Assembly: GCA_944358115.1 (NCBI GenBank)
Contig: CALVQH010000002.1
Location: 1,353-65,352, forward strand
Reading direction: 5' to 3'
Length of the DNA: 64,000 nucleotides
Origin: an uncultured Bacilli bacterium
Lineage (GTDB): Bacteria > Bacillota_I > Bacilli_A > RF39 > UBA660
This document shows, piece by piece, positions 39,808-45,668 of the stretch (its first letter is position 1; every line of letters starts with the position of its first letter). A model generated the notes under the pieces. That model saw only the letters and a list, made by a program, of their open reading frames with translations. It was not told the origin of the DNA and ran no database searches. The translations under genes and the position numbers were made by a program.

Positions 39808-40956
39808 TTAAATTCTAATCGTATCACATTTTTGCGATTTATTTCCAGCATTATCAATTGCCGTTGCACAGAAGGTTCTGCCAGTTGATTCTTGCAAATA
39901 TAAAACATTAGTGAATACTCTTGATTGAGTTTCATGAATTGTTGAACCACTACCATTTTTATAAGGTTCAATCCACATCTGATATTTTTGAATACCAGTT
40001 CCATTATCATAAGCATTTATCGTAACACGAATATTCCAGCCAGCTGCTGGTCCTTTATCTGGATTATAATATCCTAGGTTTTCAACTGTAAAACTGGTAA
40101 TTGTAGGTGCAATATTATCATACCAGCTAGGATTAATTACCAAATTTCCGTTTACTGTCCAAGTTTGATCTCTAAATGAGGTTACACTATATCCATCTCG
40201 ATCATAAACATATACTCTAACTTTAGAACCATAGTTAACAGAGTTATTATAGTAATCGGTAACCCTATTAGCCACTAGAACTCCGTCAATCCAAACCGTA
40301 AAAGTAAAACCATTTAACCCAGAAGCATATGAAACATTCTGAATAATCGAATTAATATCTACTGAATATTTTTTTGCTTTCCAGTTAGCAGTAAAAGTTT
40401 TATTTCCAGTTGAATTAGTTATTGTTAAATTAGTTGTCGGTGTACTTACACCAGTACCAGTCCAACCAGCAAAATCATATCCAGTCCGAGTAGGAATTGG
40501 TAAAGTAAAAGTTTCTTCTATATTGTAACTAGTTTTAGGATTGCTTAAAGTACCACCATTCAAATTGTACTGAATAGTATAACTTTCTACACCCCAATTA
40601 GCATAAAGCAATTGGTTATTAATACTCTCTACATTATTAATTGAAGAAGAATATTTAATTTCACCATTCAAAGATGTACTATACCCTAAAAAATCGTATC
40701 CACTTTTTATAGGTGTAGGTAAAACAACGTTGTTATTGTCAATAATAACATTATTTTCATTATACTTTCCACCATTTGGATTTATTTTTAATTGATAATC
40801 AATCGTTTTTATATTATTAGTAATAGAATCCATTGTTGTAAAAGATGCAAAAGTTGATGATAAAGGTAAAATAATAGCTAGTAAAAGAGATGATATTTTA
40901 AGTACTTTTTTCAAATTTTGCGCCCTCTTTCTTTTTATGTTGTTTATAAATATCAT
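39808..40956 (-). CDS. secreted protein with SipW-type signal peptide and Listeria-Bacteroides (InlB B-repeat) modules
   Basis: The signal region ends LSSTFASFTTMDSITNNI. Repeats GYDFLGYS...ANW and GYDFAGWTG...ANW. Overlaps the sipW gene by 59 nt. Confidence 0.65.
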   Translation of the reverse strand: MIFINNIKRKRAQNLKKVLKISSLLLAIILPLSSTFASFTTMDSITNNIKTIDYQLKINPNGGKYNENNVIIDNNNVVLPTPIKSGYDFLGYSTSLNGEIKYSSSINNVESINNQLLYANWGVESYTIQYNLNGGTLSNPKTSYNIEETFTLPIPTRTGYDFAGWTGTGVSTPTTNLTITNSTGNKTFTANWKAKKYSVDINSIIQNVSYASGLNGFTFTVWIDGVLVANRVTDYYNNSVNYGSKVRVYVYDRDGYSVTSFRDQTWTVNGNLVINPSWYDNIAPTITSFTVENLGYYNPDKGPAAGWNIRVTINAYDNGTGIQKYQMWIEPYKNGSGSTIHETQSRVFTNVLYLQESTGRTFCATAIDNAGNKSQKCDTIRI

Positions 40957-41410
40957 TACATATATCTACGACAATTAAGCCTAAACTGATGTAAAGAAGA
41001 TATTTATGATTGTATATGAAATCAGCATAATACCCAATATATGGTATTGACCAATTTGTTCCTTTACCAAGCACTTGATTCTCATTTACTAAGTTTGGAT
41101 CAAATGTATTATTTGCATCTCCCTTAGTTACAAAATTTAAGTCAATTATATCGATGATACGATGAGATATAATATGATCTTTTGTTTTATAAACTAAAAT
41201 ATCTCCATCTTTTAAATCATTTAAATCCACTTCTTCATAATATAGAATTCCACCTACCTTCAAAATTGGCTCCATAGATCCTGACATTACAACTAAGGGT
41301 TTTGAACCCCACAAACACGGAATATAAATAACTAAATAAATGATAACAAAAAAGTAAATTACACCAAAAATTATATTTTTAATCTTTAATAACATAATCA
41401 TTCTCCCCAA
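40898..41410 (-). CDS. sipW: signal peptidase I, SipW (ER/archaeal) type
   Basis: 170 aa with N-terminal TM, catalytic-Ser box VVMSGSMEPILKVGGIL, His box IISHRII and a C-terminal TM. Confidence 0.8.
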   Translation of the reverse strand: MGRMIMLLKIKNIIFGVIYFFVIIYLVIYIPCLWGSKPLVVMSGSMEPILKVGGILYYEEVDLNDLKDGDILVYKTKDHIISHRIIDIIDLNFVTKGDANNTFDPNLVNENQVLGKGTNWSIPYIGYYADFIYNHKYLLYISLGLIVVDICNDIYKQHKKKEGAKFEKST

Positions 41411-42697: not shown

Positions 42698-45668
42698 AAA
42701 TACTAGTTCCGATTCCCATTAATACTAAAATTCCTCCTAATATATATGTTAAGTCCTTTGTAGCAGTTTTCGGAACTTCAATTTCTCGACTATTAGTTAC
42801 AACAATTTCGATAACTTGATATTGTTCTGTAATTTCAAAGTCATATCTTTGATTATTTAAAACATATCCATCAAGAGATTCTATCTCTTTTAAGTAATAC
42901 TTACCAAAATCTAATGTGATTTCAATATAACCATTTTCATCAGTTATATATTCACCAACTAATCGATTATTAATATCATATAAAGCAAATTTTACTCCTG
43001 CTAATGGATTCCCAGATTCATCAGTTTTTAATAATTTAATTGTGCCATTTATTTTATCATTTTCCATTTCTACTTCAACCACTTCATCATTACTTGTTAT
43101 TTCAAAATAAATTTTATTGGCATTTAAAATATAACCTTCATTGGTTCCAACTTCTAAAATGTAATATCTTCCAATCGGAATAGAATCAATTATAAGAAGT
43201 CCATCACTATTAGTTTTACCTTGATGGATAAGTTCATCATTTTCATTATAAATTTCAAATTCTACATTTGACATAGCCTTTCCAGTATTTGCATCTACTT
43301 TCAAAAGTTCTAATGTTCCTTTTTTCAAATAGTTAACAATTTCTATCTTTTCAGTTACTATTTGGGTGTATTGATCTTGATAAGTTAAATTGATTTCATA
43401 AACAGTTTCATTTAAAACATATCCATCTAATGTTTCAATTTCCTTTAAATAATACTTGCCAAGATTACCTTCAAAAGTACCATAACCTTGTTCATTTGTA
43501 GTTATATATTGAATTAAATTCCAATTTTCATCATATAAAGCAAAGGTAATATCTTTTAGTGGAATCTTATTATATTCTATTCCATTTTCAAATGATACTT
43601 CTTCACCATACTTAAATATTTCTATTCTGCCTTTAACTGGAGTATTTTCAAATTCTAATTCTACAATAGCTCCAAATGAATCATCATAGATAATATTATC
43701 TGCACTAATATAAAATTCTAAAGGTTTACTATTCCATAAATACCCTTCTAATTCTTGATCTAATTCCTCCAATTGATAATGACCTGCTGTAAGTGATAGA
43801 GGAGTAATCAATATACCATCTGCATTTGTTTCAAATACGCATTGTTCTTTATCAGTTACTTGACATATATATTCATCCGTATCAAGATTTTTAATCTTAA
43901 ATTTTATTCCTGCAAGTGGAATAATCTCACCTGTATTACTATCGATTTTAGTAACTTTTATCTTAGCTTTCAGTAATTCATTATTAACAATTTTTTCGAC
44001 ATTACCATTTCTCATATCAATAGTAAAACAATCTGCTAACAAAGTACCAGAATCTCCTGAAGTTTGACATACACGATAAATACCATAATCAAGAGTTATG
44101 CTTGCTTTTCCACTTTCATTTGTTTTAATTGTAGCAACTTTTTCATTTGTACTTAATAGATAAATATCAAATGTAGCATTAGCTTCTGTTTCAATTACTC
44201 CTGAACTGCCATCACCAATAGTTTTGATTAAAGAAAAATCAAATTTAATAACTGGTTCTGTTGAGGTAATTTTTATTGTTTCCCCGTTATTTGAAATACT
44301 GAATTCATATTTATTTGGATCTAGTTCATGTCCTTCACTTGGTGCAATTTCCTTAACATAATAGTTTCCATATTTAAGTCCTTCATATCTAGCAACACCA
44401 TCCGCATCTGTTTCAATTTTTGTTATGAGATTATCACTCATATCATAAATTCCATAGATAGCATTTTCTAAAGAAGCATCAGTTGCTTGAGATGAAGAAA
44501 TCTTTTGTAATTCTATATTGCCAGTTATCAGTTTATTTTGAAAATTCAACTTAATATCATAATTAGATGTTGTGATTGAAAAATTATAGACAGTTGAATC
44601 TAAAATATATCCTACTGGTGAACTTACTTCGCGTATTGTATAATTTCCTACAGCTAAATTTTTACAAGTTCCTTTTCCTGCTCCATCAGTTATAATAGTA
44701 CATACTTCGGAATTACTAGAATTATATACTTTGAAAGTAGCTCCAGTTAGACCACTTCCGTTTTCACTTGTTTTAGTGATTTCTAAATTACCCCCACTTA
44801 TAGTACCAAACACACTTGCTGGAATAGGATCTATATCCCCAATAGTAACTTGATTTTGCGAATCCTCACTAATTGCAAAGAGCATTGATTTTCCATAAGG
44901 ATTCGTTTTTTTAGATAAATTGACACTTAATTTTCCTGTCCCAGTTGCTGTAATCACTAAACTATTTCCACTAATTGTTGCGTTACAATTTGTACAACTA
45001 CTAACTTGGAAGGTTGACAAGATATTATTAGTATCGTATAACGTAGTACTTTCACCTAAATTCAGCTGAATTTCCTCACGATTAAAAGACGGAAGCAAAT
45101 AGTGATTGTCCACTAACTTTTGAATTTCAGTCATTTCATCAGCAACACCAGCCTGTTCATCAGTAATTGCCTTACAATTATTGACGGTACAGTTAGAATC
45201 CGTAAAAACTTGGTTAGGATCAACAACTCGCCAAATTAACATTTGGGTTGCAATTCTATATTCATTAGTATTATGTCCATCATAACCATATCCATAAAAA
45301 GCATATAATTTTATTAGATCAAGCTGACTTTGATTAATTTTATTAGCATTGTTTGATGTGTTATTATTAATGATATTAATTAAATCATAATCACTTTGAG
45401 AATAAGTTATATACGACGCTCTATTACTAAATGTTGCTCCTGGCTCTATGCAGAACGAACTGTCCCCATTTGAAGTGGACCAAAAAGCCATTTGCCCATA
45501 ACGAGAATAGTTATTTCCACTTTTATGAGCATGGAAAAAGCCTGATACATAATTTTGATTAATGGTTATTGTATCAGCTTTAACATTATTGGTACATATT
45601 AAAATAGAAAAAAGTGCCATAATCATTAAAGGCACTTTTTTCAAAAATAATTTTATTTTTCTATTCAT
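42669..45668 (-). CDS. cell-wall-anchored thioester-domain (TQXA) adhesin with multiple CnaB/SpaA-type repeats
   Basis: 999 aa with a signal peptide. Thioester motifs SSFCIEPG and ATQMLIWRV. Repeats such as GNLEITKTSENGSGLTGATFKVY...GNYTIREVSSPVGYILD. C-terminal EVPKTATKD + TM + KKKKN sorting signal. Confidence 0.8.
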   Translation of the reverse strand: MNRKIKLFLKKVPLMIMALFSILICTNNVKADTITINQNYVSGFFHAHKSGNNYSRYGQMAFWSTSNGDSSFCIEPGATFSNRASYITYSQSDYDLINIINNNTSNNANKINQSQLDLIKLYAFYGYGYDGHNTNEYRIATQMLIWRVVDPNQVFTDSNCTVNNCKAITDEQAGVADEMTEIQKLVDNHYLLPSFNREEIQLNLGESTTLYDTNNILSTFQVSSCTNCNATISGNSLVITATGTGKLSVNLSKKTNPYGKSMLFAISEDSQNQVTIGDIDPIPASVFGTISGGNLEITKTSENGSGLTGATFKVYNSSNSEVCTIITDGAGKGTCKNLAVGNYTIREVSSPVGYILDSTVYNFSITTSNYDIKLNFQNKLITGNIELQKISSSQATDASLENAIYGIYDMSDNLITKIETDADGVARYEGLKYGNYYVKEIAPSEGHELDPNKYEFSISNNGETIKITSTEPVIKFDFSLIKTIGDGSSGVIETEANATFDIYLLSTNEKVATIKTNESGKASITLDYGIYRVCQTSGDSGTLLADCFTIDMRNGNVEKIVNNELLKAKIKVTKIDSNTGEIIPLAGIKFKIKNLDTDEYICQVTDKEQCVFETNADGILITPLSLTAGHYQLEELDQELEGYLWNSKPLEFYISADNIIYDDSFGAIVELEFENTPVKGRIEIFKYGEEVSFENGIEYNKIPLKDITFALYDENWNLIQYITTNEQGYGTFEGNLGKYYLKEIETLDGYVLNETVYEINLTYQDQYTQIVTEKIEIVNYLKKGTLELLKVDANTGKAMSNVEFEIYNENDELIHQGKTNSDGLLIIDSIPIGRYYILEVGTNEGYILNANKIYFEITSNDEVVEVEMENDKINGTIKLLKTDESGNPLAGVKFALYDINNRLVGEYITDENGYIEITLDFGKYYLKEIESLDGYVLNNQRYDFEITEQYQVIEIVVTNSREIEVPKTATKDLTYILGGILVLMGIGTSIYGFVKKKKN

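Follow-up and report, generated by a model that had tools for sequence, protein, structure and literature searches.

How conjugative elements of Gram-positive bacteria find and hold their recipients is a long-standing gap, and a locus in the DNA of an uncultured Bacilli bacterium puts the question in concrete form. The stretch analysed (64,000 nucleotides (nt) of contig CALVQH010000002.1, called the window below) carries what appears to be an integrative and conjugative element (ICE), on whose minus strand five co-directional open reading frames (ORFs) for surface proteins and their processing enzymes lie upstream of type IV secretion system (T4SS) genes. What would such an element do with these genes? 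An earlier note on this DNA had proposed that they build a TasA-like fibre and a covalent adhesin for mating. All five ORFs appear in the ORF list of the window where that note had placed them, and the protein families, the signal-peptide junction common to two of the products and the linkage to T4SS genes were recovered as it had described them; the mating role is a reading of position and conservation. It is considered probable (about 60%, a figure held there because genomic context is the one ground for the mating role) that the module is a two-arm surface apparatus with which the conjugative element catches and holds recipient cells.

Fibre subunit, signal peptidase and rod protein

The protein of 199 amino acids (aa) scored 120.7 bits (cut-off 60) against TIGR04090, named by NCBI 'BsaA family SipW-dependent biofilm matrix protein', and 25.4 bits (cut-off 19) against TIGR04088, the model of the SipW-cognate signal, in agreement with its first description as a TasA/camelysin-like protein. 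With Pfam Peptidase_M73 it reached 19.7 bits, under the cut-off of 22.5. The peptidase gene lies 24 nt downstream, and its 170-aa product scored 98 bits (cut-off 51.85) against TIGR02228, the model of the archaeal/ER-type (endoplasmic reticulum) signal peptidase I; the Ser45 and His83 motifs (SGSMEP, SHRII), by which it had been recognised as a SipW-type enzyme, are at least 95% conserved in an alignment of 40 sequences, the window protein and 39 homologues. The equivalog model of Bacillus SipW, NF046067, gave 77.9 bits, under its cut-off of 190, and the enzyme is, as judged from these profiles, of the same type as Bacillus SipW and not its orthologue. Its true start is probably ATG 41395 (165 aa), because the lengths of the homologues agree with this.

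The third gene encodes the rod protein, in which the Flg_new/List_Bact_rpt (Listeria-Bacteroides, InlB-B) repeats already noted were found with Pfam at E 3.7e-15. Its 382-aa ORF most likely starts at TTG 40914, giving 368 aa, since an AGAGGG ribosome-binding site stands before this codon and the homologues are 367-370 aa long. The overlap with the peptidase gene that had been reported at 40898-40956 is retained, its length being 17 nt when counted from TTG 40914 and not 59 nt.

At their N-termini the 199-aa and 382-aa proteins are identical in 18 of 38 aligned positions (E 3e-9), and they have one SipW-type junction in common. Furthermore, a post-cleavage strand of the form [YF][FY]xTxxx[IL]x[NS]xFxTxxY is common to 29 distinct fibre subunits and 32 distinct rod proteins, the latter being all of the rods examined. 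In the fibre subunit the predicted mature N-terminus is YFTTSDSITNNFETALYQ (residues 27-44), whose I-x-N-x-F matches the V33-N35-F37 described for BsaA (PMC11580942). In the AlphaFold2 (AF2) monomer of this protein a beta-rich core is folded with a pLDDT (predicted local distance difference test) of 70-90 and residues 1-44 are disordered; the AF2 model of the rod protein (pLDDT 87) has a signal helix, a disordered stretch at 30-47 that runs over the cleavage site into the shared strand, and then an elongated chain of beta-sandwich domains. The strand region is therefore disordered in both monomers while the cores are folded, as expected for donor strands.

Clostridium perfringens BsaA is exported in a SipW-dependent manner and forms filaments that are stable in sodium dodecyl sulphate (PMC7395162). 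Its monomers are proposed to be joined by donor-strand exchange and then locked, with the help of E56, by an isopeptide bond between N35 of one subunit and K74 of another; mutants in these residues form no oligomers (PMC11580942). The candidate isopeptide triad of the 199-aa protein is Asn36/Glu49/Lys65. Among 144 family representatives, less than 50% identical to one another, each of the three residues was present in at least 137 and all three together in 134, which is taken as good, though indirect, evidence for the same isopeptide lock as in BsaA.

No TasA-like domain was seen in the rod protein by profile and structure searches; comparison of its AF2 model with known structures showed a resemblance to adhesin stalks (GhpA, SraP, SdrD, PitA) and cadherins. 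Since a donor strand is present and a TasA-like acceptor domain is not, the rod protein could give a strand and could not take one, and this would place it at one end of the fibre.

In the mechanism proposed for this arm of the apparatus, the SipW-type peptidase would cut the signal peptide off its two substrates just before the shared strand, and the 199-aa protein would polymerise head to tail, the N-terminal strand of each subunit entering the beta-sandwich of the next by donor-strand exchange, as in TasA and BsaA. The joint would probably be locked by an Asn36-Lys65 isopeptide bond, with Glu49 as the catalyst, to give a mechanically tough fibre. The 368/382-aa protein would stand at one fibre end, whether as cap, as tip adhesin or as a nucleator like TapA, showing its rod of InlB-B and immunoglobulin-like domains.

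Homologues of the 199-aa protein form at least 479 clusters at 90% identity, of which more than 120 are at least 63% identical to it, and nearly all of these clusters come from metagenomes or from metagenome-assembled genomes (MAGs) labelled 'Bacilli bacterium'. The BsaA-like family is larger: 3515 representatives are reached at E <= 1e-3, and 235 at the stricter E <= 1e-30. When 72,556 plasmids were searched by tblastn for the 199-aa protein, two weak Enterococcus matches were all that came back, so that the module is on no characterised plasmid. Many of the BsaA-like representatives at 50% identity (P0247-P0390) are 300-900 aa long, with an N-terminal TasA-like domain and a long C-terminal extension, which suggests fibre subunits that display extra domains.

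Related loci and their linkage to conjugation genes

Nine metagenome loci and 42 loci from species-representative genomes were compared, each being scored with the window proteins; 37 of the genome loci hold a close relative (61-76% identity) and five hold distant relatives. The order BsaA-like protein, SipW-type peptidase, InlB-B-repeat protein was found in 37/37 genome loci and in 9/9 metagenome loci, with the peptidase gene adjoining the BsaA-like gene in all 37. About half of the loci also have the adhesin and sortase genes, directly upstream of these three; the others lack both. Therefore, the conserved unit is a three-gene triad, and the adhesin-sortase pair is a separable companion. The five-gene module of the earlier note holds as far as these three genes are concerned, the adhesin and sortase not being a fixed part of it.

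The triad is linked to conjugation genes. VirB4, the type IV coupling protein (T4CP) or VirB6 is encoded within 10 kb of it in 26 of the 37 loci, and when T4SS, coupling-protein and relaxase genes are counted together the number is at least 27. In L032 the triad lies between a DUF3991-Toprim (conjugative) primase and a MobA/VirD2 relaxase, an arrangement of which L033 is apparently a shorter copy, and L013 resembles L006 in having ParAB, a giant SNF2 helicase and VirB4 around the module. The rest of the 37 loci have too little flanking DNA to judge linkage; in L028, one of these, the triad stands beside the chromosomal genes rplA and rpoB at the end of a contig, with an upstream flank too short to judge. 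The placement of the triad within T4SS clusters varies: it is found before ssb/pilin/VirB6, after VirB4/M23/T4CP, or between VirB4/M23 and T4CP. No demonstrably non-conjugative biofilm locus was found among the 37 loci with a close relative.

A check set beforehand had been whether homologues of the module lie mostly in biofilm loci unlinked to T4SS genes. This is not so, and it is only distant BsaA relatives (L046-L050, 35-45% identity) that stand in chromosomal, non-conjugative surroundings, among genes for a Mur ligase, a penicillin-binding protein, transporters and CHAP proteins. Since the close relatives are T4SS-linked and the distant ones chromosomal, the pattern is as expected for, and suggests, a chromosomal matrix-fibre system captured by a lineage of conjugative elements. 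In L049 and L050, which are Candidatus Saccharibacteria MAGs, the BsaA-like protein (~10000-10560; 35-40% identity) is encoded beside a CHAP hydrolase and a MucBP/SdrD-type adhesin, and no T4SS genes were detected near it.

The median identity to the window over the 37 loci was 64% for the fibre subunit, 61% for the peptidase and 46% for the rod protein; for VirB4 it was 39%, for the sortase 37%, for the TED (thioester domain) of the adhesin 30% and for the coupling protein 29%. These values bear upon the possibility that the fibre and adhesin are cargo, that is, host colonisation or biofilm factors carried as passengers with no direct role in DNA transfer. BsaA and TasA have been characterised only as biofilm matrix proteins, the TED adhesins of pathogens bind host proteins, the distant BsaA relatives are in chromosomal, non-conjugative contexts, and adhesin cargo is common on ICEs, all of which would be in keeping with a passenger role. 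However, cargo is usually variable and found at the ends of elements, whereas the triad sits inside the transfer operon, co-directional and tightly spaced, or elsewhere between VirB4/M23 and T4CP or between primase and relaxase; it is the most conserved part of elements among which VirB4 has diverged to 25-40% identity, and no close relative of it was found in a demonstrably non-conjugative setting. A passenger role is considered rather unlikely.

The same conservation argues against a role in surface or entry exclusion, by which a fibre coat or the rod protein would block redundant mating between carriers of the element. Transfer operons often include exclusion genes, the surface protein PrgA is long, and several copies of the module can occur in one MAG; but exclusion factors are expected to diverge under selection for specificity, and the fibre subunit shows the opposite, being highly conserved across very different elements. 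This role is judged highly improbable.

Two further observations were made on individual loci. In L001 and L002 (10795-11958) an IS110-family transposase gene lies between the fibre-subunit and peptidase genes and is absent from the copies of the same element in L003-L005; this insertion is a natural disruption of the module. The MAG CAKOSN01 holds three module copies (L021, L037 and L042), two of which, L037 and L042, are on one 53.9-kb contig, suggesting either several related elements in one genome or tandem elements.

The adhesin arm and the transfer operon

The second arm of the proposed apparatus is optional. Its 999-aa adhesin, which had been described as a thioester/CnaB protein with a sorting signal, matches the Pfam TED model over residues 72-159 with 27.9 bits (cut-off 22), has SpaA domains in seven stretches (E 7.6e-107), and carries its candidate thioester residues as Cys73 in SSFCIEPG and Gln142 in ATQMLIW. 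At residue 964 it has EVPKTATKD, followed by a transmembrane (TM)/hydrophobic segment and KKKKN. Residues 113-299 align with SaTIE-TED (6fx6) at E 9.5e-9, with an identical IATQMLIW and with the alignment continuing through the beta-sandwich region that follows, and the best PDB sequence match is BaTIE (6fwv; E 9e-31). Since both of these are class II proteins and the alignment runs past the Gln motif into the region of the extra beta-sandwich by which class II is recognised, the adhesin is assigned to the class II TED (TIE) proteins, a reactive thioester being predicted.

The Cys and Gln motifs occur in most full-length homologues of the adhesin, a simple scan having missed the Gln in L031 and L039 and both residues in L038. 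The sorting motif of the homologues (adhesin genes in L001-L044) is VPxT and not LPxTG (VPKTA, VPNTE, VPDTD, VPKTG, VPITE, with IPNT in one), and it always precedes a TM segment and a Lys-rich tail, so that the tripartite layout of a wall-sorting signal is kept with VPxT in the place of LPxTG.

The 213-aa protein proved to be a sortase, as proposed, with 61.6 bits against Pfam Sortase (cut-off 26.6; E 7.7e-17) and 55.9 against TIGR01076 (cut-off 39.35). His130 and Cys192 are conserved in an alignment of the window protein with 18 homologues (19 sequences); the sortase homologue loci are L009, L015, L019, L021, L022, L027, L035-L037, L040 and L044. All curated sortase subclass models (A-E and the LPxTATN type of SrtD) were far under their cut-offs, the best being SrtD (66.5 against 140) and class C (65.3 against 160). 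The sortase is presumed to anchor the adhesin through its VPxT signal, and in the proposed mechanism the class II thioester domain would be held out from the wall on a seven-domain isopeptide stalk and would bind the partner cell covalently, as shown for TIE-pLS20.

The operon joins a TED adhesin to a sortase and an S26-family protein, and the module might alternatively be a variant of the FCT-type pilus of Streptococcus pyogenes, where a TED tip adhesin works together with a sortase and a chaperone resembling a signal peptidase. The BsaA-like fibre would then be polymerised by the sortase or linked by it to the adhesin, and the peptidase would act as a chaperone. The VPxT signal is reminiscent of VPPTG/EVPTG, the signals of FCT pilins. 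Furthermore, sortase, SpaA and LPxTG genes are often neighbours of BsaA/TasA genes according to Kivimaki et al., who do not mention conjugation. What argues against such a pilus is that the triad occurs with neither adhesin nor sortase in about half of the loci, that no sorting signal was seen in the fibre subunit or the rod protein, that the peptidase is of the SipW type with its catalytic Ser and His and not of the inactive bacterial type, and that the pilin model NF033902 reached 63.5, under its cut-off of 95. This alternative is regarded as improbable.

Directly upstream of the adhesin gene is a gene for a 245-aa membrane-anchored protein, and a protein of the same architecture (182-266 aa) is encoded at this position in nearly all of the adhesin-bearing loci. 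These counterparts are highly divergent, beyond the reach of BLAST, and the protein may be a fast-evolving sixth member of the module.

The intergenic gaps within the module are 0-50 nt and a search of its interior for minus-strand terminators gave no convincing candidate; a single operon is therefore plausible for the five genes. Downstream on the same strand are ssb and the genes for a VirB2-like pilin, a VirB6-like protein, VirB4 and an M23 hydrolase (Table 1), in line with the position upstream of T4SS genes given to the module in the earlier note, followed by minus-strand genes for a methylase and a primase. Between ssb and the pilin-like gene is a 191-aa ORF with no family assignment.

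Table 1. Positions of the features discussed, in window coordinates
Feature	Position	Strand	Details
Surface adhesin, 999 aa	42669..45668	-	signal peptide, class II TED, seven SpaA/CnaB-type stalk domains, VPKTA motif, TM, KKKKN
Sortase, 213 aa	42056..42697	-	His130, Cys192; no Arg after Cys
BsaA-family (TasA-like) fibre subunit, 199 aa	41435..42034	-	SipW-type signal peptide 1-26; predicted donor strand 27-44; beta-sandwich core
SipW-type (archaeal/ER-type) signal peptidase I, 170 aa	40898..41410	-	Ser45 (SGSMEP), His83 (SHR)
InlB-B-repeat rod protein, 382-aa ORF	39808..40956	-	SipW-type signal peptide, strand SFTTMDSITNNIKTIDYQ, two InlB-B/Flg_new repeats, two more beta-sandwich domains
Promoter-like site	47327..47374	-	-35 TTGACA 47374-47369; -10 TATTAT 47351-47346; consensus match
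Two small ORFs, operon head	46514..47291	-	156 aa (46821-47291) and 80 aa (46514-46756)
Membrane-anchored protein, 245 aa	45717..46454	-	acidic linker, Cys-containing C-terminal domain
ssb, single-strand DNA-binding protein of the element	39404..39772	-	profile match
VirB2/TrbC-type T4SS pilin-like protein, 133 aa	38339..38740	-	signal peptide and two TM helices
T4SS core	32915..38342	-	four genes (next four lines)
VirB6-like membrane protein	36678-38342	-	also matches pLS20_p028 family
Membrane protein, 90 aa	36389-36661	-	
VirB4 ATPase	33945-36389	-	NF045975 (Mycoplasma-ICE model) 494.8 bits, under 590 cut-off
M23 cell-wall hydrolase	32915-33976	-	
VirD4-type coupling protein (T4CP)	16864..19176	-	NF045973 259 bits, cut-off 250
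Large serine recombinase	13056..14933	-	likely integrase at one element end

The 133-aa pilin-like protein scored 36.7 bits against Pfam T4SS_pilin (cut-off 26.6) and 30.1 against TrbC/VirB2 (cut-off 27.9), with a weak match to the Mycoplasma-ICE 'Mbov_0395 pilin-like' model. Its gene lies ~1.1 kb downstream of that for the peptidase, and it is conceivable that the peptidase serves the T4SS by processing this pilin or some other T4SS part, the two proteins with SipW signals being secondary; in RP4, the S26-family peptidase TraF matures the TrbC pilin. However, the pilin carries an ordinary AxA-type signal (VRA/VEK) in which the SipW-cognate motif is missing, the peptidase gene always stands between the genes of the two proteins with the cognate signal, and a pilin homologue was found in just 10 of the 37 loci. 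There seems to be very little chance that this is the function of the peptidase. The 199-aa protein itself matched none of the VirB2/TrbC pilin profiles of Pfam and NCBIfam.

The genes for the pilin-like protein, the membrane protein and VirB4 are in the same order as the Mycoplasma ICE genes Mbov_0395, 0396 and 0397, and the best plasmid relatives of VirB4 are the ATPases of Spiroplasma ICEs, at ~27% identity. The T4SS backbone thus resembles the Mycoplasma/Spiroplasma ICE type, a likeness that links these gut elements to the ICEs of Mollicutes. VirB4, a VirD4-type T4CP, an M23 peptidase, a VirB6-like protein, a primase, a single-strand DNA-binding protein and a large serine recombinase are all encoded in one co-directional block. 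Profile searches of the unassigned ORFs in the window gave no match to a relaxase family, and tRNA and Rfam scans of the window gave no matches. That the element is an ICE is well supported, by this gene content rather than by mapped boundaries.

At the head of the operon a strong promoter-like site (47374-47346) overlaps a perfect palindrome, TTGACAATATTTGTCAA, at 47374-47358, and a second, imperfect repeat, TTGACAAT..TGTCA, follows at 47343-47327. The two have the look of a pair of operator sites, and the region 47327..47374 is a candidate operator and promoter of the transfer operon; it is 93% identical to the corresponding part of the related locus L051. The 156-aa and 80-aa ORFs gave no family at a meaningful score in a Pfam search, and homologues are in the same position in L011, L012 and L039. 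A perfect hairpin with a 12-bp stem at 38750-38780, between the 191-aa ORF and the pilin-like gene, was rejected as an internal terminator because no T-run follows the stem on the minus strand. Upstream of the operon, genes for a NUDIX-domain protein, a radical-SAM-like protein and a LysR regulator (47612-51204, minus strand) are in an order that is kept in the contig of L051 (14-3597), and may be part of the element rather than of the host chromosome.

Several points weigh against the proposed two-arm apparatus. As to the fibre, the published BsaA positions (V33, N35, F37, E56, K74) are matched by none of the retrieved proteins, and the equivalence of N36/E49/K65 to the BsaA triad is based on pattern and not on an alignment; a Foldseek search of the PDB with the AF2 model of the 199-aa protein gave no match at E <= 0.001 and did not recover TasA, and a profile search of PDB sequences with the same protein also gave no matches. 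Around half of the rod proteins have Ser or a different residue where the shared strand would have its Asn, and the strands of cognate fibre and rod proteins are not significantly more alike than those of non-cognate pairs (permutation p = 0.07). As to the adhesin arm, the canonical Arg after the TxC motif is in none of the 19 aligned sortases, Gln200 being invariant there. All 42 genome matches are MAGs. Furthermore, BsaA and TasA are known as biofilm proteins, so that a cargo role of benefit to the host is possible, and the element's own VirB2-like pilin (38339-38740), which the earlier note had missed, could fill the role of an appendage. Since this VirB2/TrbC-type gene is also present, the fibre is not the sole candidate appendage of the element. 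The more specific proposal, that a donor-strand-exchanged and isopeptide-locked TasA/BsaA-type fibre, tipped with the InlB-B-repeat protein and processed by the element's own SipW-type peptidase, is a dedicated mating appendage of a widespread family of conjugative elements in uncultured low-GC gut Bacillota, is considered somewhat less likely than not.

Comparison with known systems

All of the components come from known families; what is new is how closely, and how widely, the fibre triad is built into transfer operons, together with the strand-bearing rod protein. Literature searches that paired SipW or TasA with conjugative elements, T4SS or sortase brought up no account of such a module, and no paper that connects a SipW/TasA-type system with a conjugative element or a T4SS. 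The module is a concrete candidate for a Gram-positive mating appendage, a fibre system that lies in T4SS operons, is more conserved than the secretion ATPase and is spread over dozens of genomes at species level and hundreds of protein clusters from metagenomes. The host matrix of TasA and exopolysaccharide promotes transfer of ICEBs1 (PMC6158512), and an element-encoded fibre would therefore be a reasonable adaptation; the suggested takeover of a chromosomal biofilm-matrix system by mobile elements fits with this effect. Human and ruminant gut metagenomes are rich in these elements, so that the module may matter for gene flow in the gut, and its strand-plus-isopeptide chemistry could serve as a protein-ligation tool.

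A close likeness in the fibre arm is to the sipW-bsaA-bsaB-bsaC locus of C. perfringens, with which it shares a TIGR04090 subunit, the SipW-cognate signal, an adjacent SipW-type peptidase, the N-terminal x-I/V-x-N-x-F strand, a conserved Asn/Glu/Lys set of similar pattern and the frequent nearness of sortase genes. That locus, unlike this one, is a chromosomal biofilm locus regulated by temperature and a two-component system, and the partners of BsaA are BsaB (TasA-like) and BsaC (with a vWA domain); here the partner is an InlB-B-repeat rod with a donor-type strand, and the genes are in the T4SS operon of a mobile element.

The tapA-sipW-tasA operon of Bacillus subtilis has the same composition of an accessory SipW substrate, SipW and a polymerising fibre subunit. 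The subunit, TasA, polymerises by donor-strand exchange, and TapA has reportedly been proposed (Boehning 2022, Roske 2023) to prime TasA assembly by strand complementation. The similarity in sequence is however marginal, as seen in the Peptidase_M73 and SipW equivalog scores (19.7 against 22.5 and 77.9 against 190); TapA is unrelated to the rod protein, TasA is without the N-E-K triad, and the operon has no link to conjugation genes.

For the adhesin arm there is a precedent: a class II TED adhesin in the conjugation operon of pLS20 is needed for efficient transfer, above all in liquid medium (PMC8092201). TIE-pLS20 (pLS20 gene 34) likewise has an N-terminal class II TED on a CnaB-type stalk and is encoded in the conjugation operon of a Bacillota element, but it has no sorting signal and pLS20 has no sortase, whereas here there are a VPxT signal and a cognate sortase, with the fibre module alongside. 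The module differs also from PrgB/PrgA/PrgC of pCF10 and the LPxTG aggregation substances in its predicted thioester chemistry of adhesion and its putative polymeric fibre; no Pfam or NCBIfam match to a polymer-adhesin domain (PAD; GbpC/AgI/II-type) was detected in any module protein.

The FCT pilus of S. pyogenes consists of the TED tip adhesin Cpa, SipA/LepA, SrtC and a major pilin; the fibre is made of pilin polymerised by a sortase, SipA is a peptidase of the bacterial type without catalytic activity, and the pilus is not known to be linked to conjugation. The two are alike in that one surface-fibre operon encodes a TED adhesin together with a sortase and an S26-family protein, and in the VPxTG-like, non-LPxTG signals; the difference is that the module has a TasA-like subunit without a sorting signal and a peptidase of the SipW type with its active site intact.

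According to a review dated December 2025, conjugation in Gram-positive bacteria involves no element-encoded conjugative pili and depends on adhesins anchored in the wall, and VirB2 is absent from these systems except for a Patescibacteria case (PMC12857230). With the VirB2/TrbC pili of Gram-negative systems the fibre would share its role, that of an extracellular filament from a transfer operon which promotes contact between donor and recipient. Those pili are built from a helical pilin that is extracted from the membrane and assembled on VirB6, whereas the fibre predicted here would be Sec-exported and self-assembling by exchange of beta-strands, in an element that additionally has a VirB2-like gene of its own. 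If the fibre is indeed a dedicated mating appendage, it would do the work of a conjugative pilus by an entirely different principle of assembly, in contradiction of the textbook statement that Gram-positive systems have no pili.

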